Shown piece by piece: positions 7,404-36,087 of a stretch of 64,000 nt of DNA. The notes below the pieces were generated by a model. That model searched no databases and was not told where the DNA came from. It was given only the letters and a program-made list of their open reading frames with translations. Where the stretch lies: positions 1 through 64,000 of IMG/VR virus record IMGVR_UViG_3300011008_000049, one strand, 5' to 3'. How positions within the stretch are numbered: position 1 is the stretch's first letter; every line of letters begins with the position of its first letter. Source of the DNA: a virus (taxonomy: Duplodnaviria > Caudoviricetes). Position numbers and translations under genes: made by a program.

Positions 7404-7832
7404 ATGAAAAATTGGGAATTTGCCGTTAAATCAGCGGAAGAAATCAGGCAGCGCGGATTATGCGGATGGTATGCAATTCTTGTAAACGGAAAAGACAGTT
7501 ATACCGGAAAGACAAAGGATGATTATATCAAAGAAGGATATACCGTTCTATCGGAAAATGAATTTGATGAGCTTATAGCGGAAAACGAAAGAAATCAATG
7601 CAACGACTGGAAAGAAATCACGGAGGAAGAATACGAAAGAGCGTTGAACATTCTACCGCCGAAAAAGTGGCACGATGGCGGATTTTATATCGGAGAATGT
7701 TACAGCGGTTCGCTTTACGGATTTTATCAGAAGTTTAACGGAAAATACTACACGTCATTACAGAGTATTTACACAAAGCGGGAGGAAATCCTGGAAAATC
7801 TCAAAAAGTTTATAGAAAGGAATGTCAAGTAA
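7404..7832 (+). CDS. hypothetical protein
   Basis: GGGAG RBS; EITEEEY...LNILPP motif typical of phage early proteins. Confidence 0.7.
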   Translation: MKNWEFAVKSAEEIRQRGLCGWYAILVNGKDSYTGKTKDDYIKEGYTVLSENEFDELIAENERNQCNDWKEITEEEYERALNILPPKKWHDGGFYIGECYSGSLYGFYQKFNGKYYTSLQSIYTKREEILENLKKFIERNVK

Positions 7833-7852
7833 ATTCCGAAAAAACTTGACAA

Positions 7853-8128
7853 ATGACAAGTAAAATGAAATTAACTGATATTGAATTATTGGCGGCGTTG
7901 GAAAATTTAAGGATTGGTTATCAATACAGGGATATTGATGATTATACAATGCGCATAGCATCCGCCATAGTTGCGAAAAATCTCGGTTATAAGGATAGAG
8001 CCGAATGGACGGAAAAATTAAGCGAATCCGGACTTGTAAAATATGAAATTTGTGATGACACGGAAGCCGCAAGAGCAAATTATTTGCGATTGATGGAAAA
8101 ATTAGATAAAGGAGAAAATGAACAATGA
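7853..8128 (+). CDS. hypothetical protein
   Basis: ORF overlapping next start. Confidence 0.65.
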   Translation: MTSKMKLTDIELLAALENLRIGYQYRDIDDYTMRIASAIVAKNLGYKDRAEWTEKLSESGLVKYEICDDTEAARANYLRLMEKLDKGENEQ

Positions 8129-8826
8129 AAAAGTATAAAGTATTTTGTAGAGCCGACAAAAGAGGCGCACAGTGGAGAGCATACAGCGGATTATTTGACA
8201 CAATGGAAGAAGCCGCCGACAGTCTTTTAATGGCGATTGATTTTGATAAGTGTGACCCGGTTATTTTCAAAGTTGAAGCCGTTGAGACAACGGAAAACGC
8301 CTCCAGAAGCGCGGAATGTATTTGTTTTACCGATGTTCAAGCAGATGTATATGAACAGGTTAAAAAGGCAAAGAAAGCCGGAGAGACGGAAAAACTAAAC
8401 GGAATCCGCGACAAATACGGATATGACCTTTATAAATGGGCGCTGGATGAATTGAATAAACAGGAGGAAAAGGTTATTGAAATTCTATGGGGCGCAGCTT
8501 GTAGCGGAGAAATTGACACGCTGAAGGCATATTATGAGAACGGCGGAAAAGTAAACCGCAGATATTATAAATTTGGAATTGCGCATAGTTTAATCGCCGG
8601 AGCATTGCGGAACGGTCAAACGGAAACAGTCAAGTATTTACAGAGCAGAGGCGAATCAGTGGCAAGCGTAACGGAACATAGCGAATTGAGAGGGCTATAT
8701 CTGAACGTTTTAATCGAAGCGGCGGAAAATCTGGTTGATTATTTCAAATACCATAACAAGAATACGACAAAGGCGCAGGACGAAAAAATTGATGATTTAG
8801 CGGAGATTTTACGCATAATCAAATAG
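8125..8826 (+). CDS. protein with ankyrin-repeat-like segment
   Basis: LWGAACSGEIDTLKAYYENGGKVN and LIAGALRNGQTETVKYLQSRG resemble ankyrin repeats. Confidence 0.55.
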   Translation: MKKYKVFCRADKRGAQWRAYSGLFDTMEEAADSLLMAIDFDKCDPVIFKVEAVETTENASRSAECICFTDVQADVYEQVKKAKKAGETEKLNGIRDKYGYDLYKWALDELNKQEEKVIEILWGAACSGEIDTLKAYYENGGKVNRRYYKFGIAHSLIAGALRNGQTETVKYLQSRGESVASVTEHSELRGLYLNVLIEAAENLVDYFKYHNKNTTKAQDEKIDDLAEILRIIK

Positions 8827-26466: not shown

Positions 26467-26495
26467 TTGACAAATACTATTAAATTTGCTATAAT
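26467..26495 (+). promoter_or_regulatory. sigmaA promoter
   Basis: TTGACA-N17-TATAAT. Confidence 0.8.
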
Positions 26496-26527: not shown

Positions 26528-27520
26528 ATGGGTAAAATTACAACAAAAGAGATTTTAGATGGATATTATGAAAGTGTTGCCGGAACTTCCGCAGCGTTGA
26601 CAAGAGTACAGATTGATAAAGCAGAGTTATATGCCTATGAAATGAAAATCGGCAAAGAATTCATTGACATGGACGTTGATGATTTGTTTGGACTGATTAT
26701 TGAACTGAAAAATAAGAGAAAAGGGAAAGAAATAAATTACATGATTTCTCATTCCTCTTATGACCAGATTTCAACACTATTCAGAGCGATTTTCAATTGG
26801 TATATCGACAATGTTGAAATTATCAAGAACCCTCTCAATGATAAGCGGATGAAAGGCAAAGAGGCAACGAAACGCCTTGCACAAGGTCGAGAACCGTTTA
26901 GATGGAAAATCGTTGAGGATGTTATTAAAAAACTTCATCAGGAGAAAGACCAGGATAACGCAGATTATATTGAATTAATAATGCTGATGTTCTATAATGG
27001 TTTTTCAAAAGCGGAAGAAGTTGTAAAACTTCAAGAGAATATGATTGACCATAGAAATCATACGGCGAAACTTCCCGGCAGAACTGTTCATCTTTCTGAA
27101 AGATGTTACGAGCTTCTTCAAAAGTTTCACAATATGGAAGAAATCGAAGGTTGGCGTGGCAATTATCTGATGGCAAGTTGGAACGGTAGTTACTTCAAAT
27201 TCATTATTCGGCAAAGCCAAGAGGATAAGTTGAACGAAAGACCTATGACAGCAATGTGCGATATTCTAAATCGAGCATTAGCGGTAAATGTCAATGACAG
27301 ATTTGGAATTAAGATTAACTATCATATTCTTTATCTCTTGGGATTCTATGATTTCATAGTCAGCAAATACGGAGAGGAAAGAACAAGCGAAATGCTAACC
27401 TCTTATAGAAATTCGGAAGATGTAACGGCATTGATGAGTGCAGCACGAGAATACGGTGTAGAAGTGGATAATATATCTCATCTTAAACGGTATTTAAGAC
27501 CGTTCATCGAGGCGGATTAA
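26528..27520 (+). CDS. recombinase-fold protein, MrpR/YopR-like repressor candidate
   Basis: SAM-like N-domain with ..KNP.., LMFYNG..EEVVKL box I lacking catalytic Arg, no HxxR. Confidence 0.55.
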   Translation: MGKITTKEILDGYYESVAGTSAALTRVQIDKAELYAYEMKIGKEFIDMDVDDLFGLIIELKNKRKGKEINYMISHSSYDQISTLFRAIFNWYIDNVEIIKNPLNDKRMKGKEATKRLAQGREPFRWKIVEDVIKKLHQEKDQDNADYIELIMLMFYNGFSKAEEVVKLQENMIDHRNHTAKLPGRTVHLSERCYELLQKFHNMEEIEGWRGNYLMASWNGSYFKFIIRQSQEDKLNERPMTAMCDILNRALAVNVNDRFGIKINYHILYLLGFYDFIVSKYGEERTSEMLTSYRNSEDVTALMSAAREYGVEVDNISHLKRYLRPFIEAD

Positions 27521-27529
27521 AGGCAATTA

Positions 27530-27555
27530 TAGACTGCCTGAAACATGGCAGTCTA
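27530..27555 (+). terminator. hairpin after repressor-like gene
   Basis: TAGACTGCC...GGCAGTCTA. Confidence 0.6.
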
Positions 27556-27615
27556 TATAAAATGATTATAAAATAAGACGGAATAACACTAAAACAGAGA
27601 AAAGGAGCGGGAGCA

Positions 27616-28168
27616 TTGGGTGTATATGTCCTAACAGATGGAAGCGGTACTTATATTCGCAAAGATGAAGCAACTGGAAGATATGTACCGATTAGAAGTT
27701 TTAAGCACGCAAAACAATGGGATAGCATTCTGAAGGCAAAATCTGTATTGGATAATTCTATTTCAAAGTCAATCAGAAATTCATATGCTGTTCAGTTGGT
27801 AGACACAGAAGAAATCATTGAGAAAGAAGATTTAAGCAAACAGAACGAATTGATTTTCCGGGAAATCGAGGATGATAATATATCCGATTGGTTATCCAAG
27901 ATAAATACTATTAAAGATGTTCTCTCCGGTTCTGATAGTCGTGTTAGTGAGTTGACGGAAAAGTTAAGCGAGGTTGACAGAGAAATTGTTGACGTTCAGC
28001 ATTACATAGAATTTGGAAAGTTTAATTGTTATCAGGATTAAACATGATTAAGCAATGCAAATTTGATATGACTTCAATCTCTGCTCTATCTCAAACAATT
28101 TCAGATGCAAAGAACAAGTGTTATACTCCGAGAGCTTTTCCGGAATTGTTTAGGAGCGGAAAATGATA
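27616..28168 (+). pseudogene. coiled-coil hypothetical protein, apparently broken near 28040
   Basis: ORF stops at 28041; a plausible C-terminus (..KQCKFD..CYTPRAFPELF) follows in another frame. Confidence 0.45.
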
Positions 28169-28302
28169 AAGAAATTACGATTATGGTTACATGACCTGAA
28201 ACCGCGCATTTATAATTGTCCAGATGTTTATTACATAGTCTGGCGCGGAAACGAATACATAATTAAAAAATGTGGAAATAATTACAGATTTAGGGGGTGA
28301 AA

Positions 28303-28574
28303 ATGTGGGAGCAGACGTTTTTGAAAAGTTGGTAAAAGAAATCGTTGCGAAATATACCAACGAGCATCTTGATAAAAGTGATGATAAGCAGATTACAGAA
28401 GATGATGTATTTATCGTTTGGCAGGTTAAGGCTTTGCAGAATAACAAGGCATTAGCAAGTACAACTCTCTTTGACGGAATGTATTATGAACTTACTTATA
28501 ACGGCGATAAAGAAGAAATCTATCTCGATGCTTATAAGAAGTGGGAAAACAAATGTATCAGTCTGAAAGGATGA
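28303..28574 (+). CDS. DUF6275-like phage protein
   Basis: DVFIVW..KALQNNKALASTT..DGMYYELTYNGDK.EIYLDAYKKWEN. Confidence 0.7.
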
Positions 28575-28578
28575 TTAA

Positions 28579-28890
28579 ATGAAAGTCGGAGATTATATCG
28601 GCGCTTTGTATAAGAAAACGAAGCCGGACGGAAAAGAAGTATGGGAACTATGCGAAAGTAAGATAACCAGAATTGTCCAGAACACGAAAGGAACAAGAGT
28701 ATATAGCAAGAGATTCAATGCTCTCGATATTGATGAAATTCAAAGCAATACGGAGATGATGGAAGAAGCCGATAACTTTATTCTTGTTCGTGAAGTTGTA
28801 TTGCTCAATGAAATAACCAGACCGAAATATGAACGGTGGGTAAAATGGGCGAATGAGAATCCGGATGAAGTAAAGTCGATATTACAATAA
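28579..28890 (+). CDS. hypothetical protein
   Basis: RBS. Confidence 0.7.
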   Translation: MKVGDYIGALYKKTKPDGKEVWELCESKITRIVQNTKGTRVYSKRFNALDIDEIQSNTEMMEEADNFILVREVVLLNEITRPKYERWVKWANENPDEVKSILQ

Positions 28891-28932
28891 AAGACGAGTT
28901 TTATTATCAATTTTGAAAGGAGATTATAAGAT

Positions 28933-29280
28933 ATGGTAGAAATGAGACTACGCCCAAGCGGTAGCATTGTCCGTGTTTACAGTTTTAATTCAGATGGAAC
29001 GGCTTTTATTTTTGACCCAATGGCATATATGAATAACAATCAAGGAATGATTAAGGTTAAAATCGGAAAACTTGTTCCAATTGATTATCCTCTGCATAAT
29101 TCTGATGCGTGTTCTAAAACAAAAAAGAATAAGGCAAAAGCAAGATTACATTTAGTTGATGCCGTATGGGAATCCACAGATGGAATCAAATACAGCCATG
29201 ACTGTATCGAAGAAGCAATTCAACATGAATTAGACCTTATGGAAAAAGAAAATAATGAAAGTGAGATTGTTAAAGAATGA
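28933..29280 (+). CDS. hypothetical protein
   Basis: AAGGAG RBS. Confidence 0.7.
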   Translation: MVEMRLRPSGSIVRVYSFNSDGTAFIFDPMAYMNNNQGMIKVKIGKLVPIDYPLHNSDACSKTKKNKAKARLHLVDAVWESTDGIKYSHDCIEEAIQHELDLMEKENNESEIVKE

Positions 29281-29822
29281 AGAAACTATTAGTTGTAGTT
29301 GATATGCAAAATGACTTTATAGATGGCTCTCTTGGCACAAAAGAGGCAGAAGCTATTGTTCCGAATGTTGTAGATAAGATTGAGAAATGGGATGGAGATA
29401 TTATTACTACACAAGATACTCATTTTGACAATTATCTGAATACAAGAGAAGGAAGATATTTGCCGGTTCAACATTGTATTTCTGGAACAAATGGTCATAA
29501 AATTAATGAAAAAGTCAATGAAGCCGTTCTGTCATCTGGTCATCATATAATGAATGTTAGTAAGTTCTCATTTGGTAGCAAGGGACTTCCGCATTTCATA
29601 TTTAATGAGATTTTCAAAAATGGAACAGAATACGGATATATTGAAATCATCGGATTATGTACCGATATATGTGTTGTTTCAAATGCACTTTTGTTAAAAA
29701 CACATTATCCAGAAGTTGATATTGCTGTTGATGCTTCCTGTTGCGCCGGTGTTACGCCAGAAAGCCATAAAGCTGCGCTTCTTACCATGAAGATGTGCCA
29801 AATTGATATTATCGGAGAATAA
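29277..29822 (+). CDS. pncA: nicotinamidase (isochorismatase family)
   Basis: VVDMQNDF..GSLG, TQDTH, HC, K, GLCTDICV. Confidence 0.85.
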   Translation: MKKLLVVVDMQNDFIDGSLGTKEAEAIVPNVVDKIEKWDGDIITTQDTHFDNYLNTREGRYLPVQHCISGTNGHKINEKVNEAVLSSGHHIMNVSKFSFGSKGLPHFIFNEIFKNGTEYGYIEIIGLCTDICVVSNALLLKTHYPEVDIAVDASCCAGVTPESHKAALLTMKMCQIDIIGE

Positions 29823-29824
29823 AA

Positions 29825-30685
29825 ATGATTAAATTAAACGGAACAGAGATTGTTATTGATAAATTTCCGGATGGAACACTTCATTTTGCAGATAGTTGCG
29901 GAATGGATAAGCATTCGGGATGGACTTGTGCAGATATTGAATGGTATTTTGAAAGCAATGAAGAAATGGTTTCTTTAATGTTTATTGTCAAACATTTAAG
30001 GGCGCACGATGTTCAAATAGCCAGATTGACAATGCCATATATTCCAAACGCAAGGCAGGACAGAGTTAAGAGCAGCGCAGATGTTTTTACATTGAAGTGG
30101 TTTGCCGATTTTATAAATTATCTCGGATTTAACGAGGTAAGAGTTCTTGACCCGCATTCTTCTGTTAGTGAGGCTTTATTTAATAATCTACGAGTACAAA
30201 ATCCTTCTCATTATATTATGAAAGCAATCACTAAAATCGGTTGTATTAAGGAAGATACTAATAAAAATTTAATTGCGTTTTATCCGGATGAGGGTGCTAT
30301 GAAACGTTATTCTGGTCTGATTCCGTTGGAATATGCTTTTGGAATCAAAAGACGTGATTGGAAAACAGGAAAGATTGAAGGAATTGATGTTGCTGGTTCT
30401 GTTGATGCAATTAAAAATAGTAGCATTATCATCATTGATGATATAAGCAGTAGAGGCGGTACATTTTACTTTTCAGCGAAAAAGTTAAAAGAACTTGGAG
30501 CAAGCCATATCTATTTATATATAACTCATTGTGAAAAGACAATTTTTGAAGGAGAAGTTTTCAAAAGTGGTCTGATTGATAAGGTTTATACTACAAATAG
30601 TATTTTTAATGCGAAAGTCCAGGAATACGGTGTATCTCTTGGATTGAAAGATAAATTTGAGGTGTTTGAATATGAAAAATACTAA
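29825..30685 (+). CDS. prs: ribose-phosphate pyrophosphokinase-like (Adps-like candidate)
   Basis: FPDG, MPYIPNARQDR, LDPHS, PDEGA, IIDDISSRGGTF, THC. Confidence 0.85.
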   Translation: MIKLNGTEIVIDKFPDGTLHFADSCGMDKHSGWTCADIEWYFESNEEMVSLMFIVKHLRAHDVQIARLTMPYIPNARQDRVKSSADVFTLKWFADFINYLGFNEVRVLDPHSSVSEALFNNLRVQNPSHYIMKAITKIGCIKEDTNKNLIAFYPDEGAMKRYSGLIPLEYAFGIKRRDWKTGKIEGIDVAGSVDAIKNSSIIIIDDISSRGGTFYFSAKKLKELGASHIYLYITHCEKTIFEGEVFKSGLIDKVYTTNSIFNAKVQEYGVSLGLKDKFEVFEYEKY

Positions 30686-32144
30686 CCCTATGCTTTTGAT
30701 TGATTTTTATAAGGCTGTTCATGCAGAAATGCTTCCGAACAATATTACAAAATCCGTATCATATTTTACTCCGCGTATGAGCAGAGTCAAAAGATGGGAT
30801 AAGGTCGTAATGTTTGGATTACAGGGATTTATTAAAAGGTATTTGATTGATTATTTTAATAATGAATTTTTCAATAAACCTTTTGATACGGTTATATCGG
30901 ACTATAAACGCATTATGGATGCAACTCTTGGAAAAGATGCTTATAAAATCGAAAAAATTGAGCATTTGCATAAGTTAGGCTACTTACCAATTGAGATAAT
31001 TGCCCTTCCGGAAGGAACTCTTGTCCCTATGCACGTTCCTATGTTTGGCATTACGAATACACATCCGGACTTTGCATGGCTTCCGCAATCTCTCGAAAGT
31101 CTTATTTCCGCCGAAAGCTGGCATCCAATGCTTGCTGCAACAGTCGGATATACTTACCGTGAGATAGTAAACAAGTATTATGATTTAACTTGTGATGACA
31201 ATGTACCGAGAGCAAAGGCACTTGGGGCATTTGATTTCAGAGGCGAGGAATGTACTGAATCGGCAGTTAAAGCCGGAGCAGGATGGTGTTTATCGTTTTT
31301 GAATACTGCAACAGTTCCAACAATTCCTTATCTTGAAGAAATGTATAATTGCGATTGTACGAAAGAACCAGTTGCGTTTGGCAGCCCAAGTACAGAACAT
31401 TCTGTAATGTGTAGCAATTATGCAGTTGATGGTGATGAAATCACATTATTGCGAAAGTTATTAACAGAAATTTATCCAAACACATCATTTTCTGCTGTTT
31501 TGGATTCCTATGACTATTGGAATGTTATTGATAACATTCTTCCGCAACTTAAACCTGAAATTTTAGCACATAACGGATGTATGCTGATGCGTGGAGATTC
31601 CGGAGATTGTGTTGAGGTTGTTACAAAAACTGTATTCAAACTCTGGGATGAATTTGGAGGTAACATTAATAGCAAAGGATATAAAGTTCTTAATCCCCAT
31701 GTAAAAGCAATCTATGGAGACTCTATTACAATTCAGAGATGCGAAGAAATTTATAAAATCCTGATGAGTAATGGGTTTGCCTGTTCAAACGTGGCTCTTG
31801 GTGTTGGTTCGTTTTCTTTCCAGTGCGTTGAAGAAGATGGAATTTTGAAGCCGTTTACCAGAGATACATTTAGTTCTTGTATTAAAGCAACATATTGTGA
31901 AATTGATGGAAAACCAACTCCAATTTTTAAGAATCCAAAAGATGGTGGGTTTAAGAAATCGCAAAAAGGATGTTGTGTTGTTTTCAAAGACAATGATGGA
32001 CATTTAACATATCATGATGAATACACCTGGGATGAGGCAAGTAAAGAAAACAACTTGTTAAAGCCTGTTTATAAAGATGGAGTTTTACTTTTTGAGCAAA
32101 CTCTTTCCGAAGTTAGAAGCAATCTACACGGAGGTAATTTTTGA
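30672..32144 (+). CDS. nadV: nicotinamide/nicotinate phosphoribosyltransferase-like (Namat-like candidate)
   Basis: DFYK..H, DF.RG, STEHSVM, DSYD, RGDSGD, IYGDSI, KKSQKG; start moved to ATG 30672. Confidence 0.85.
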   Translation: MKNTNPMLLIDFYKAVHAEMLPNNITKSVSYFTPRMSRVKRWDKVVMFGLQGFIKRYLIDYFNNEFFNKPFDTVISDYKRIMDATLGKDAYKIEKIEHLHKLGYLPIEIIALPEGTLVPMHVPMFGITNTHPDFAWLPQSLESLISAESWHPMLAATVGYTYREIVNKYYDLTCDDNVPRAKALGAFDFRGEECTESAVKAGAGWCLSFLNTATVPTIPYLEEMYNCDCTKEPVAFGSPSTEHSVMCSNYAVDGDEITLLRKLLTEIYPNTSFSAVLDSYDYWNVIDNILPQLKPEILAHNGCMLMRGDSGDCVEVVTKTVFKLWDEFGGNINSKGYKVLNPHVKAIYGDSITIQRCEEIYKILMSNGFACSNVALGVGSFSFQCVEEDGILKPFTRDTFSSCIKATYCEIDGKPTPIFKNPKDGGFKKSQKGCCVVFKDNDGHLTYHDEYTWDEASKENNLLKPVYKDGVLLFEQTLSEVRSNLHGGNF

Positions 32145-33319
32145 TGATTGATAAATTTGATGGTGAATATGCTTTTTTAAGCAACTTTTTTGAAGTTCCT
32201 GTAAATTATGACGGTCTTTTATATAGAAATAGTGAAGCAGCATTTCAAGCACAAAAAACCATCAATCAAAATGAACGATTACAGTTTGTGAATCTTAACG
32301 CATCTCATTCAAAGAGGCTCGGAAGAACTATTGAATTACGGAAAGATTGGGAATCCATTAAAATCAGAGTTATGTATGAAATTTGCCTCGCAAAATTTTC
32401 TCAAAATCCTGAACTTGCTAAAAAACTGATTAAAACCGGTGACAATATTCTTATTGAAGGCAACACTTGGAATGATACATTTTGGGGCGTATGTAACGGC
32501 GAAGGCAGAAACAATCTCGGTAAAATACTGATGAGAATAAGAGCGGAACTTTCATTTGATGCGGTAAAAGTTAAAGAAAATGTCGTAAAATGGATAAAAG
32601 ACATTTTTGAAACAAACGGGAAAGGGTGTAACGCCGTTGTTGGAATCTCTGGTGGAAAAGATTCAAGTGTTGTTGCTGCGCTGTGTGTTGAGGCACTTGG
32701 TAAAGAAAAAGTAATCGGTGTTTTAATGCCTAATGGCGTACAAAATGATATATCTGATTCTGTAAAATTAGTTGAACATCTTGGAATCAAATATTTAACT
32801 GTTAATATTTCCGATGCTTATAATGGCGTGATAAATGAAATCAATAGTATTTTTGTTCCCGAAAGAGATGGATATGAAGATATTGTTATTTCGGAGCAGA
32901 CAAAGGTAAATCTTCCGGCAAGAATTAGAATGTCAACATTATATGCAGTATCACAATCTATGAATGGCAGAGTAATGAATACTTGTAATTTGTCAGAGGA
33001 TTGGGTTGGATATTCCACGAGATATGGAGATGCAGCAGGAGATTTTAGTCCAATATCATCATTAACGAGTGGTGAAGTTGTTAAAATCGGTAAAGTGTGT
33101 GGCTTACCAGATGAATTAATTTATAAAGCTCCTTCGGATGGGTTATGCGGCAAAACAGATGAGGATAATCTTGGGTTTACTTATGATGTTTTGAACACAT
33201 ATATAAGAACCGGTATATGTGATAATGATGAAATCAAAGACAAAATAGATTTAATGCACAACAAAAATAAGTTTAAGTTGCTTCCTATGCCAAAATATGA
33301 GTATAATCCAAATGATTAA
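32141..33319 (+). CDS. nadE: NADAR (YbiA-like) domain fused to NH3-dependent NAD+ synthetase
   Basis: N-term FLSNF..EAAFQAQK..KF.QNP.L..L..TG..LIEGN..D.FWG..G.N.LGKILM; C-term GISGGKDS, ARIRM, GYSTRYGD, PSDGL..TDEDNLG. Confidence 0.9.
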   Translation: MMIDKFDGEYAFLSNFFEVPVNYDGLLYRNSEAAFQAQKTINQNERLQFVNLNASHSKRLGRTIELRKDWESIKIRVMYEICLAKFSQNPELAKKLIKTGDNILIEGNTWNDTFWGVCNGEGRNNLGKILMRIRAELSFDAVKVKENVVKWIKDIFETNGKGCNAVVGISGGKDSSVVAALCVEALGKEKVIGVLMPNGVQNDISDSVKLVEHLGIKYLTVNISDAYNGVINEINSIFVPERDGYEDIVISEQTKVNLPARIRMSTLYAVSQSMNGRVMNTCNLSEDWVGYSTRYGDAAGDFSPISSLTSGEVVKIGKVCGLPDELIYKAPSDGLCGKTDEDNLGFTYDVLNTYIRTGICDNDEIKDKIDLMHNKNKFKLLPMPKYEYNPND

Positions 33320-33348
33320 AAATAATTTAGAATATTTTCAAAAACTAC

Positions 33349-33377
33349 TTGACAAATTAAGATTCGTGTGCTATAAT
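33349..33377 (+). promoter_or_regulatory. sigmaA promoter driving the DGR operon
   Basis: TTGACA-N17-TATAAT. Confidence 0.8.
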
Positions 33378-33440
33378 ACAGATACACTAAATAAGACGGA
33401 TAAACACCGTAACACATTTATAAAAGAAAGAGGTATTAAA

Positions 33441-34052
33441 ATGAAAATCGAAGTTAAGAACAATGTTCCCGGACTGAATGTGACCGTGAACCAGAATGCA
33501 GATGGTTCTTTCGCCATCCTTCTCGCAGAGCAGCGCAAAAAGACTCTTGGAGATGTTAAGCCCGGAGAAGTTGTGAAACTCGGAAACCGTGAATATATCG
33601 TTCTCGGTCATGCTGCGGAGACTACTGCTGTAATTACCAAGGAATTTGCAAAGAAAATGGAGTTTGGTAATAACGGAGATTATTCAAAGAGTTATGTCCG
33701 TGAATATTGCAATGGAGAGTTCTATAATGAACTTGTAAAGGCTGTCGGAAAGGATAACATTGTAAAGCATACCGTGAACCTTATGGCTGATGATGGCACT
33801 GGTAAGGGCAATGTTGTTCAGGACTATGTTTCTATTCTGACTACTGACCTTTATCGCCGCTATCGCGCCTTTCTCCCCTCTTATGGAGATTGGTGGTGGA
33901 CTGCAACCAGAGTTTCCGCTGATGATAGTCTTGGATATGCTCGTGACGTTTGCTATGTCTGCTCCAGCGGTATTCTGGGCTGGCGTGGCTGTGGCTGTTC
34001 CAGTGGGGTTCGCCCGTTTTGTATCTTGAATTCTTCTGTCTTGGTATCTTGA
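33441..34052 (+). CDS. DGR target protein, C-type-lectin fold (DUF6273-like)
   Basis: WWWTAT...GVRP C-terminus contains the VR; start moved to ATG 33441 (GAGG RBS). Confidence 0.85.
   Translation: MKIEVKNNVPGLNVTVNQNADGSFAILLAEQRKKTLGDVKPGEVVKLGNREYIVLGHAAETTAVITKEFAKKMEFGNNGDYSKSYVREYCNGEFYNELVKAVGKDNIVKHTVNLMADDGTGKGNVVQDYVSILTTDLYRRYRAFLPSYGDWWWTATRVSADDSLGYARDVCYVCSSGILGWRGCGCSSGVRPFCILNSSVLVS
33939..34018 (+). repeat. DGR variable repeat (VR)
   Basis: 80 bp, 12 mismatches to TR, all opposite TR adenines. Confidence 0.95.
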
Positions 34053-34067
34053 CAGAAATTATAAATA

Positions 34068-34433
34068 ATGAGTGATGAACGAAAATTTGAGATAGGTGAA
34101 AAGGCTGAACAGTTATATTTTAAGGTATTTGACCTAACAACGAATAGACAGCATTATCCGGTCAAATTTCGTAGGATGGCAGACAGACTTCAAGAATATG
34201 CTCTTGATATACATAGTGATGTTTTGGATGCGAATTCATATACATCAAGTTCAATGTCTCATAAGCAGAAACGATATGACTTGCAGACTAACGCTATAAC
34301 AAAATGCAACAAGTTATTAAGTTTGACGAAGTATTGTTTGCACGCTCATTTAATAAGTTATGCTACAAGCGAGGAATGGACTAATTTAGCCCATGATATA
34401 AAATATATGACTCTTGCTTGGAGAAAGACCTGA
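34068..34433 (+). CDS. avd: Avd-like four-helix-bundle DGR accessory protein
   Basis: 121 aa helical protein, YP..FR..L, C-terminal W, between target and TR. Confidence 0.85.
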   Translation: MSDERKFEIGEKAEQLYFKVFDLTTNRQHYPVKFRRMADRLQEYALDIHSDVLDANSYTSSSMSHKQKRYDLQTNAITKCNKLLSLTKYCLHAHLISYATSEEWTNLAHDIKYMTLAWRKT

Positions 34434-34462
34434 CTTGATATTCTTTTAGGCTATATGCTGTC

Positions 34463-34542
34463 GCTCGTAACGTTTGCTATGTCAACTCCAACGGTATTCT
34501 GAACTGGAATGACTGTGACTATTCCAATGGGGTTCGCCCGTT
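34463..34542 (+). repeat. DGR template repeat (TR)
   Basis: AAC/AAT-rich copy of VR between avd and RT. Confidence 0.95.
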
Positions 34543-34656
34543 CTGGTGGAAGTGCGAGGTCTATAAACCGCTTCGGCGGTTACAAGGAGAGCGCCACATC
34601 AAAAGAGCATATAACCTTTCTCATAAGAAAAGATGGGATAAATACAAAAGTCTATT

Positions 34657-36087
34657 ATGGGTGATTTTCAGAAACTTACTGATTTCGGGAATCTCTATAA
34701 TTCTTGCCAAGTTTCTTTAAGAGGTAAAGGCAAGAAAAAGAGTGCGGCGAAGTTCAATGTTATGGCACTCGAACACCTATGCGTGATGAAAAGACAATTA
34801 TTGAGTCGCACATACAAAATTTCGCCGTATTCTGAATTTATCGTAAAAGAACCAAAAACAAGAGTTATCAAGTCAGGTTCTTTCAAAGATAAGGTGTTGC
34901 AGCATTGTCTATGTGATTATGTTTTGCTGCCTACAATGAAAGACATTTTTATAACAGATAATTATGCCGGACAGATAGGAAAAGGAACATTATTCGGTCT
35001 TGACAGATTATCTGAAAATCTCCAAGAGTTTTATAATGAGCATGGGAGCAAAGGATATATTCTAAAATGTGATATAACTAAATTCTTTTATTCAATCAAT
35101 CATGATTTGATGAAAGAAAGTATCAAAGAATATTTCCAGGATGATGGTATTCAATGGATATGTAATCTTTTCATAGACAGCGTAGATGGTGATGGACTTC
35201 CTCTCGGAAATCAAAGCAGTCAAGTTTTTGCACTTATATTCCTGAATGGTCTTGACTATTTTATAAAAGAAGAATTGAAGTGCGAATACTATGGTCGCTA
35301 TATGGATGACTTCTATCTGTTGTCAAATGATAAGGATTATCTAAAATACTGTTTACAACGGATTACAGAATTTTTATCTGGTTTGCGCCTATCACTAAAT
35401 AGTAAAACAGAAATTGTTCCAATGAGCAAAGGAATAAGATTTCTCGGTTTTCATACATATCTTACGGACGATGGAAAAGTAATAAGAAAATTAAATGGAG
35501 AGAACAAAAGACAAATTAAAAAGCGTTTAAGAATTTATTCAAAATTGGTACTTGCCGGAATAATGACAAGAGAAAAATTTGATGAAAGTTATAATTCTTG
35601 GCGCAATCACGCTTCTCATGGGAATTGCTTTAAGTTGTTATGTGAGATTGATAAATATGTAGAAGAATTGTTTGGAGAGAAGAAAATGGAAACCAGAATT
35701 ATTATTGCAGGTAGCAGAGGATTTACGGATTATCAATATCTTAAATCTAAAATGGAACAGTTTATCAAAGAACATCCGAATCAAAGGTTTGTCATTATAA
35801 GCGGAACTGCCAATGGAGCGGATAAACTTGGAGAACGATTTGCGATTGAAAAAGGAATTGAACTCCGCAGATTTCCAGCAGAGTGGAATAAATATGGTAA
35901 ACGAGCTGGATATTTAAGGAACGTTCAAATGTTGGATTTTGCAGCACAAGCTGACGGAGAATCTGTTCTTATGGCGTTTTGGGACGGTAGCAGTAAAGGC
36001 ACAAGGCATATGGTTAAAATTGCAAAGAACGCCGGAATTACCGTCAATGTATTTTTGAAAGAAGAAAAGAACAATGAGAATAATTAG
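34657..36087 (+). CDS. DGR reverse transcriptase fused to C-terminal SLOG (YspA/DUF2493-like) domain
   Basis: LKCDITKFF, GLPLGNQSSQ, RYMDD, FLGF; from aa 344 IIIAGSRGF..ISGTANGAD..AGYLRN..AFWDGSSKGT. Confidence 0.9.
   Translation: MGDFQKLTDFGNLYNSCQVSLRGKGKKKSAAKFNVMALEHLCVMKRQLLSRTYKISPYSEFIVKEPKTRVIKSGSFKDKVLQHCLCDYVLLPTMKDIFITDNYAGQIGKGTLFGLDRLSENLQEFYNEHGSKGYILKCDITKFFYSINHDLMKESIKEYFQDDGIQWICNLFIDSVDGDGLPLGNQSSQVFALIFLNGLDYFIKEELKCEYYGRYMDDFYLLSNDKDYLKYCLQRITEFLSGLRLSLNSKTEIVPMSKGIRFLGFHTYLTDDGKVIRKLNGENKRQIKKRLRIYSKLVLAGIMTREKFDESYNSWRNHASHGNCFKLLCEIDKYVEELFGEKKMETRIIIAGSRGFTDYQYLKSKMEQFIKEHPNQRFVIISGTANGADKLGERFAIEKGIELRRFPAEWNKYGKRAGYLRNVQMLDFAAQADGESVLMAFWDGSSKGTRHMVKIAKNAGITVNVFLKEEKNNENN

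Follow-up and report, generated by a model that had tools for sequence, protein, structure and literature searches.

Organisation of the NAD operon

The window analysed here comprises 64,000 nucleotides and represents the first 64 kb of a 152,621-bp IMG/VR virus record (IMGVR_UViG_3300011008_000049), a gut phage sequence with a CheckV completeness of 99%. The G+C content of the window is ~36%, and nearly every gene lies on the + strand. Among these is an operon for NAD metabolism at positions 29277 to 33319, which probably encodes a deamidated version of NAD+ reconstitution pathway 1 (NARP1) that is self-contained. A first-pass annotation had named four open reading frames (ORFs) in this segment, pncA, a prs-like gene, a nadV-like gene and a NADAR-nadE fusion, and all four were recovered at exactly the stated positions.

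The first gene (29277..29822, + strand) encodes a PncA-type nicotinamidase of 181 residues (Pfam Isochorismatase, 1.4e-17), predicted to convert nicotinamide to nicotinate and NH3. The second (29825..30685, +) encodes an Adps-like ADP-ribose pyrophosphokinase of 286 residues (phrog_619, 2.5e-66), predicted to form ADP-ribose pyrophosphate (ADPR-PP) and AMP from ADP-ribose (ADPR) and ATP. This is followed by the gene for a Namat-like transferase, a putative nicotinate-type variant (NAMPT_N and NAPRTase domains; phrog_448, 8e-159), for which the ORF opens with a TTG at 30657 and the ATG at 30672 is the likely start (30672..32144, +). The last ORF (32141..33319, +; likely ATG at 32144) encodes a fusion of an N-terminal NADAR domain (32165..32551, +; residues 9-137; Pfam NADAR, 4.4e-27) to an NH3-dependent NAD synthetase domain, NadE (32576..33319, +; Pfam NAD_synthase, 1.8e-52).

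The translational coupling proposed in the first-pass annotation is compatible with every junction of the operon, each being an overlap or a short gap. The pncA start codon at 29277 is part of an ATGA overlap with an upstream ORF, and the pncA stop codon TAA is separated by 2 bases from the ATG of the Adps-like gene at 29825, which is preceded by GGAGAA. The Adps-like and transferase genes overlap by 14 nt, with the ribosome-binding site AGGTG ahead of the likely transferase ATG at 30672, and the transferase gene meets the NADAR-nadE fusion in a TGATG overlap, with GGAGG ahead of the ATG at 32144.

Candidate promoters were taken by consensus match alone (sigma-70-like TTGACA-17-TATAAT plus an extended TG), and their function is presumed from that match. 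Perfect sites (12/12 with the TG) were found at 26467..26495 (+), the probable transcription start for the NAD operon, and at 33349..33377 (+), where the NAD operon ends and a diversity-generating retroelement (DGR) cassette begins, with none between them. This suggests that the NAD operon is co-transcribed with the small genes upstream of it and ends before the DGR cassette.

Enzymes predicted for the first two and the last steps

The closest solved relatives of the PncA-type protein are the nicotinamidases 1im5 (P. horikoshii) and 3pl1 (M. tuberculosis). Its catalytic residues D9, K96 and C132 and metal ligands D47, H49 and H66 align with the corresponding P. horikoshii PncA sites, and neither the catalytic triad nor the Asp-His-His metal ligands vary among 165 distinct PncA sequences from related modules. 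The protein scored 28 bits against the NCBIfam PncA equivalog NF008623, for which the cut-off is 174 bits, and passes the Pfam superfamily model only.

The product of the prs-like gene is 40% identical to the validated Adps of SPbetaL1. The ADPR-binding and catalytic residues of Adps were defined by structures of the ICP1 enzyme (PMC13586617), and F18, R87, H121, D161, K185, D212 and D213 of ICP1 Adps are all kept. Position F92 is occupied by Lys in the window protein and varies among validated Adps enzymes too, and the PP loop reads DDISSRGGTF compared with DDLSSFGGTF in SPbetaL1 Adps. The protein falls below every NCBIfam cut-off for phosphoribosyl pyrophosphate (PRPP) synthetases (for example, 103 vs 113 bits and 80 vs 297 bits), and solved PRPP synthetases match it at only 1e-13. 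By these comparisons it is a member of the Adps family, distinct from housekeeping PRPP synthetase, as expected from the link to NARP1 Adps drawn in the first-pass annotation.

The NadE domain, of ~250 residues, scored 170 bits against TIGR00552 (cut-off 63.65) and includes the PP-loop motif SGGKDS. A glutaminase domain is absent.

The transferase has an altered base pocket

When compared with solved structures, the transferase matched SPbetaL1 Namat (9w5w and 9w5x) with an E value of 1e-123, as compared with 1e-45 to 1e-48 for the Xcc and human Nampt enzymes. This agrees with the earlier connection of the nadV-like gene to NARP1 Namat, and the protein is assigned by sequence to Namat and not to Nampt. 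Given an identity of ~46% to SPbetaL1 Namat, the fold of the transferase can be regarded as already fixed. The Nampt-like catalytic core (D13, Y15, F189, R192, H245, R306 and D308) is conserved in full.

In the crystal structure of SPbetaL1 Namat, the nicotinamide pocket consists of F189, R192, D215, A242 and R306, to which the partner subunit adds D13' and Y15'; Asp215 is hydrogen-bonded to the amide of nicotinamide, and the D215A substitution cuts NAD+ formation ~8-fold (PMC12774641). The equivalent residue of human NAMPT, Asp219, sets substrate specificity, the listed effects being loss of activity for D219A and a switch of substrate for D219S (PMC7096376; PMC4919578). In the window transferase this amide-binding Asp is absent and Ala218 takes its place. 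Alignments with canonical Namat and Nampt identified three pocket changes which, in the SPbetaL1 numbering used here for positions 213, 215 and 242, are G213N, D215A and A242S. The codons for N216-T217-A218 (31302..31310, +) stand in place of G-T-D, such that the stretch G-T-D-T has become N-T-A-T, and the codon for S245 (31389..31391, +) stands in place of that for canonical Ala242. The same three residues are present in all 125 close relatives.

The pocket was further assessed in a census of 150 cluster representatives at 50% identity. Position 215 was Ala, Ser or, once, Val in 53 variant representatives, while 100 representatives read G/D/A at the three positions. Ser was found at position 242 in 51 of the 53 variant representatives and Ala in 99 of the 100 canonical ones, and position 213 of the variants was mainly Lys (21) or Asn (19). 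Lys213 would put a positive charge where the pocket had a negative one, if position 213 faces the pocket as its spacing to D215 suggests. When the Namat family was aligned, profile against profile, with the PncB-like genes of three module-carrying bacteria (probability 95.8%), Ser fell under D215 and Thr under A242. The variant pocket therefore appears to be shifted toward the state of a genuine nicotinate phosphoribosyltransferase.

The adenine clamp and the likely ribosyl donor

The clamp residues that select for adenine, R40 (codon 30783-30785), F392, T398, R399 and D400, are retained in the window transferase. Across the variant clade, R40, F/Y392, the aromatic residue before TRD and T398/R399/D400 are conserved to the same extent as in canonical Namat. 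The clamp helix motif of the window protein (31806..31865, + strand; identified in alignments) reads G-S-F-S-F-Q and F-T-R-D, the two parts being split by a 9-residue insertion and the aromatic residue standing directly before TRD. Xcc Nampt has G-G-A and Lys at the clamp positions and is without the aromatic residues. The insertion blurs this comparison, but with the clamp residues and an Adps-type partner both retained, ADPR-PP remains the likely donor.

The representatives P0047, P0087 and P0104, which are canonical Namats, contain an insertion of ~280 residues that begins with Cys directly after the clamp G-S-F/Y, and this looks like an intein in the active-site helix. Many other representatives have lengths of 550-1100 residues, and their matches to the query are broken into 2-4 separate segments.

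Pocket type and gene neighbourhood

To relate the pocket to its genetic context, 376 loci were collected from IMG/VR and GTDB genomes and classed by the residues at positions 213, 215 and 242. The flanks were searched with hidden Markov models built from the module proteins, and only loci flanked by 2.5 kb or more on either side were counted. For the 135 loci with a canonical pocket (G-D/E-A), neither PncA nor NadE was found within 3 kb in a single case, and Adps was found in 129. For the 178 loci with a variant pocket (N-A-S, K-S-S or L-A-S), the surrounding 3 kb included PncA in 171 cases and NadE in 170, and Adps was found in all 178; in the exceptions, the missing gene was mostly 3 to 5 kb away. 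A further nine variant representatives from separate 50%-identity clusters had an isochorismatase gene nearby in eight cases and an NAD_synthase gene in seven. The contig of P0037, also among those looked up, was too short for its neighbours to be judged.

In a tree constructed without the trait columns, all variant sequences fell on one side of a single branch (support 99). Repeated independent covariation of pocket and neighbours was thus rejected, the variant being a single clade that arose by one change. However far the sequences have diverged within the sample, pocket and neighbours are jointly kept, down to ~40% identity and with zero reversals, and it is in this joint conservation over divergence that the evidential weight lies.

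These data bear on an alternative in which the operon is canonical NARP1 with helpers, the Namat homologue still joining nicotinamide to ADPR-PP while PncA and NadE boost host nicotinate salvage in parallel. Generic helpers would not be expected to be missing from every one of the 135 canonical loci, and in the window PncA would destroy the substrate of the very enzyme it accompanies. Although SPbetaL1 Namat D215A keeps residual nicotinamide activity, and the catalytic core and clamp residues are retained as this alternative would have them, the Asp has been lost along with two more pocket changes that mimic nicotinate phosphoribosyltransferases. The alternative is judged improbable.

The place of NADAR in the module also became clearer from the survey. 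The NADAR domain of the window scored 95.8 bits against Pfam PF08719 (cut-off 35.1), and its nearest solved relative is E. coli YbiA (6.5e-20). Fusion of this domain to NadE is limited to the window and its nearest relatives, L001 and L058, and NADAR is missing from most loci; in the K-S-S variant subclade, 30 of 72 loci carry NADAR close by as a gene of its own. NADAR was thus rejected as part of the conserved core, and the first-pass annotation, which had counted the fusion as part of the module, is corrected accordingly. Every NADAR type tested to date removes ADP-ribose from guanine in DNA in vitro (PMC11125620), and the proximity of phage NADARs to NAD salvage genes has been described before (PMC9503650). 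The domain might free ADPR for the pathway.

A megablast search of the operon against 50,697 phage records gave no match, and the closest deposited record by protein (63%) is an unannotated faecal phage scaffold, MT835544. A second lineage of gut phages, of roughly 100-180 kb, carries the module with a K-S-S pocket (loci L218-L297 from IMG/VR, many of them from sample 3300045988). In one variant locus (L381:3585-9168), ABC-transporter genes and a gene with a CinA domain lie between the transferase and NadE genes; the CinA family includes the NMN (nicotinamide mononucleotide) deamidase PncC. In another (L378:3184-4347 and 7624-8694), two genes of the IS605 OrfB/TnpB type flank and split the variant module, with NadE retained.

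Chromosomal copies of the module and NrtR

An earlier reading of the module as a phage invention has to be corrected, as it is also an NrtR-linked chromosomal operon of gut Clostridia. In Konateibacter massiliensis, the four-gene module lies in a chromosomal setting with a FecCD transporter, LacI, and a histidine kinase and response regulator; in strain 0.1xD8-71 it is found with DnaE, phosphofructokinase and NrtR, and in Filifactor villosus a chromosomal module is located beside NrtR. These plain chromosomal copies in three isolates led to rejection of a phage-only module. Of 80 genome loci, 53 or more had an NrtR-like gene in their flanks, as against 0 of 213 viral variant or window-related loci. 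Regulators of the NrtR type (Nudix plus winged helix) adjoin the Clostridia copies, for example at L068:8314-9231, L100:2900-4024 and L380:128-958. NrtR leaves prs-nadV operators in response to its effector, ADPR (PMC2330246), and induction by ADPR would make sense for an operon in which the first dedicated enzyme consumes this compound.

In the carrier bacteria, NadE is also encoded apart from the module, and a PncB-like and a NadD-like gene are present as well. The module thus brings an additional NadE dedicated to it, in keeping with a pathway by which nicotinate adenine dinucleotide (NaAD) is delivered. The transferases of Lachnospiraceae, Oscillospiraceae and other Clostridia share 71-86% identity with that of the phage, suggesting recent exchange and pointing to Clostridia as the likely hosts. 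As the same operon is present in Clostridia chromosomes, usually beside NrtR, the phage copy looks like a captured host recycling pathway; it is without NrtR and lies behind a phage promoter-like site.

The phage copy would keep NAD+ levels up during infection, most plausibly against NADase defences. The chromosomal, NrtR-linked occurrence of the operon in Clostridia would suit a general metabolic booster, that is, a captured host NAD-recycling operon which performs the same chemistry and sustains NAD+ in replication, with no part in counter-defence. Canonical NARP1, however, has the same two core enzymes and is proven counter-defence (bioRxiv 10.1101/2024.02.11.579819), and the two compounds that NADase effectors produce are exactly those on which the module draws. 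The booster role is accordingly considered the less likely of the two, though a serious candidate; it concerns role and not mechanism, and overlaps with the explanation preferred here.

The proposed route to NAD+

A search for the PF01467 domain, which covers the adenylyltransferases NadD, NadM, NadR and NMNAT, was negative in the window and in the whole 152,621-bp record, and positive in 14 of 14 control genomes. The first-pass annotation had stated that no adenylyltransferase for NMN or nicotinate mononucleotide (NaMN) is present in the window and had proposed looking for nadD or nadM in the remainder of the genome; the former held, and the latter search, run on the whole 99%-complete record, found no PF01467 domain either. 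No NUDIX domain and no second gene of the NAPRTase family were found in the whole phage record. The only other ADPR-related match in the phage is a weak Macro domain in a 149-residue frame outside the window (86753-86980; 22.4 bits against a cut-off of 22).

Deamidation of nicotinamide to nicotinate and NH3 by PncA would be the first step in the proposed route, and the Adps homologue would form ADPR-PP and AMP from ADPR and ATP in the second. In the third, a new reaction, the Namat variant would join nicotinate to ADPR-PP to give NaAD and pyrophosphate (PPi), and NadE would then use ATP and NH3 to amidate NaAD to NAD+. We infer every substrate and product of this route from sequence. If the Namat variant yields NaAD directly, an adenylyltransferase is not needed. 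The NH3 balance would also close, as the NH3 released by PncA would equal that consumed by NadE. Our best guess at the rationale is that nicotinate is the available base in hosts with nicotinamidase activity, and that, being charged, it is better retained in the cell than nicotinamide. A nicotinate route had been predicted in the first-pass annotation from gene content, and it now gains support from the loss of the pocket Asp, the linkage to PncA and NadE, the kept clamp residues and Adps partner and the lack of an adenylyltransferase.

A broader interpretation is held with somewhat less confidence, though it is favoured over its negation. Under this interpretation, the undescribed reaction of nicotinate with ADPR-PP to give NaAD and PPi would constitute a route to NaAD that bypasses adenylyltransferases, and a fourth pathway of NAD+ reconstitution, which would serve ADPR-induced (NrtR) recycling in gut Clostridia and would have been captured by several large gut phage lineages. 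In the phage studied here, NADAR might free ADPR from ADP-ribosylated guanines.

Several points weigh against the proposed route. The insertion in the clamp helix is 9 residues in the window and 6 to 42 in close relatives, and Tyr396 is not conserved in place; with this insertion and the displaced Tyr396, the specificity for the donor may have changed. In Namat the phosphate of NMN is contacted by Ser190; this residue is Asp in the window (codon 31233-31235) and most close relatives, and position 190 varies between S, G and D across the variant clade, whereas canonical Namat has Ser there almost without exception. Second among the solved relatives of the NadE domain comes the Francisella enzyme 3fiu (7.6e-32), which presumably amidates NaMN rather than NaAD, and the predicted preference of the window NadE for NaAD over NaMN cannot be read from its sequence. 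As the variant is one deep clade, the link between pocket and neighbours amounts to one conserved evolutionary event. The route also costs one ATP more than NARP1.

Finally, hosts have NadD, and this leaves an unlikely route through PRPP and NaMN. In such host-dependent salvage of the Preiss-Handler type, the Prs-like protein would make PRPP, the Nampt-fold enzyme would make NaMN, host NadD would convert this to NaAD, and phage NadE would finish the pathway. The pocket changes indicate nicotinate and are silent on the ribosyl donor, and SPbetaL1 Namat still uses PRPP in vitro (PMC12774641), but both proteins lie within the Adps and Namat families and not with PRPS and Nampt. Likewise, the clamp helix is interrupted by the insertion, yet the variant clade as a whole preserves the adenine-clamp residues and an Adps homologue accompanies the variant enzyme in 178 of 178 loci. 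NadD-like genes do occur in module-carrying bacteria; these, however, already own a PncB-like gene for that reaction, and an ADPR-responsive NrtR adjoins the bacterial copies. There would thus seem to be little chance that the operon performs salvage of this type.

Comparison with known systems

The NARP1 systems of SPbetaL1, Bas63 and ICP1 (bioRxiv 10.1101/2024.02.11.579819; PMC12774641; PMC13586617) resemble the phage operon in having adjacent, translationally coupled genes for Adps and Namat homologues, in which the catalytic cores, adenine-clamp residues and ADPR-binding residues are kept, and in needing no adenylyltransferase. The phage operon differs in the Asp215 to Ala, G213N and A242S changes and the 9-residue insertion in the clamp helix, and the variant module travels with a nicotinamidase and an NAD synthetase, as none of the 135 canonical loci sampled does. 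The predicted product of the transferase is NaAD, whereas that in NARP1 is NAD+.

The Preiss-Handler pathway or pyridine nucleotide cycle (PncA, PncB, NadD and NadE) shares the first step by PncA, the last step by NadE, and the intermediates nicotinate and NaAD. In the operon, however, the pair of Adps and Namat-like enzymes replaces PncB and NadD, and NaAD is predicted to arise from ADPR-PP in one step without NaMN or an adenylyltransferase. The nrtR-prs-nadV operons of gamma-proteobacteria (PMC2330246), like the Clostridia copies, include a Prs paralogue and a NadV-type gene beside an ADPR-responsive NrtR, but are without pncA and nadE and were interpreted as PRPP-dependent nicotinamide salvage. 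NARP2 (Nampt with NMNAT/Nudix) and NARP3 (PnuC with a NadR-like protein; PMC13464706) are further cases of phage-encoded NAD+ restoration. Both require the PF01467 adenylyltransferase domain that the window phage lacks, and their starting compound is PRPP or nicotinamide riboside and not ADPR.

The NARP1 preprint yielded no reference to NadE, PncA, nicotinic acid or NADAR. Nicotinate is not mentioned in the Namat structure paper, nor are NadE and PncA in a survey of viral NAD+-ADPr systems, and no paper in the NARP1 literature was found to co-mention NadE, PncA or NaAD. Likewise, no paper was found that describes the module of PncA, Adps, Namat variant and NadE or the enzyme reaction it implies. 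If the route is correct, nicotinate ADP-ribosyltransferase would be a new activity in NAD metabolism, and NaAD could form without adenylyltransferases of the NadD type. It would also widen the range of phage answers to NAD+-depleting immunity (NARP1 to NARP3), and recycling of the NARP1 type would be regular, ADPR-regulated housekeeping in abundant gut Clostridia that phages have borrowed. For annotation, positions 213, 215 and 242 would provide a simple sequence rule separating nicotinamide-type from nicotinate-type enzymes.

Genes adjacent to the operon

Several genes are located between the promoter-like site at 26467 and pncA (26528-29280). Three of them, ORFs of 330, 141 and 115 residues, were scanned and had no Pfam or PHROG match; the 115-residue ORF, which overlaps pncA via the ATGA, has no counterpart in related loci. 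Directly after the NAD operon, the DGR cassette (33297-36087) encodes a DUF6273 target protein, Avd, and a reverse transcriptase fused to a SLOG domain of the YspA type. This cassette is common to the window phage and loci L001, L048 and L058.

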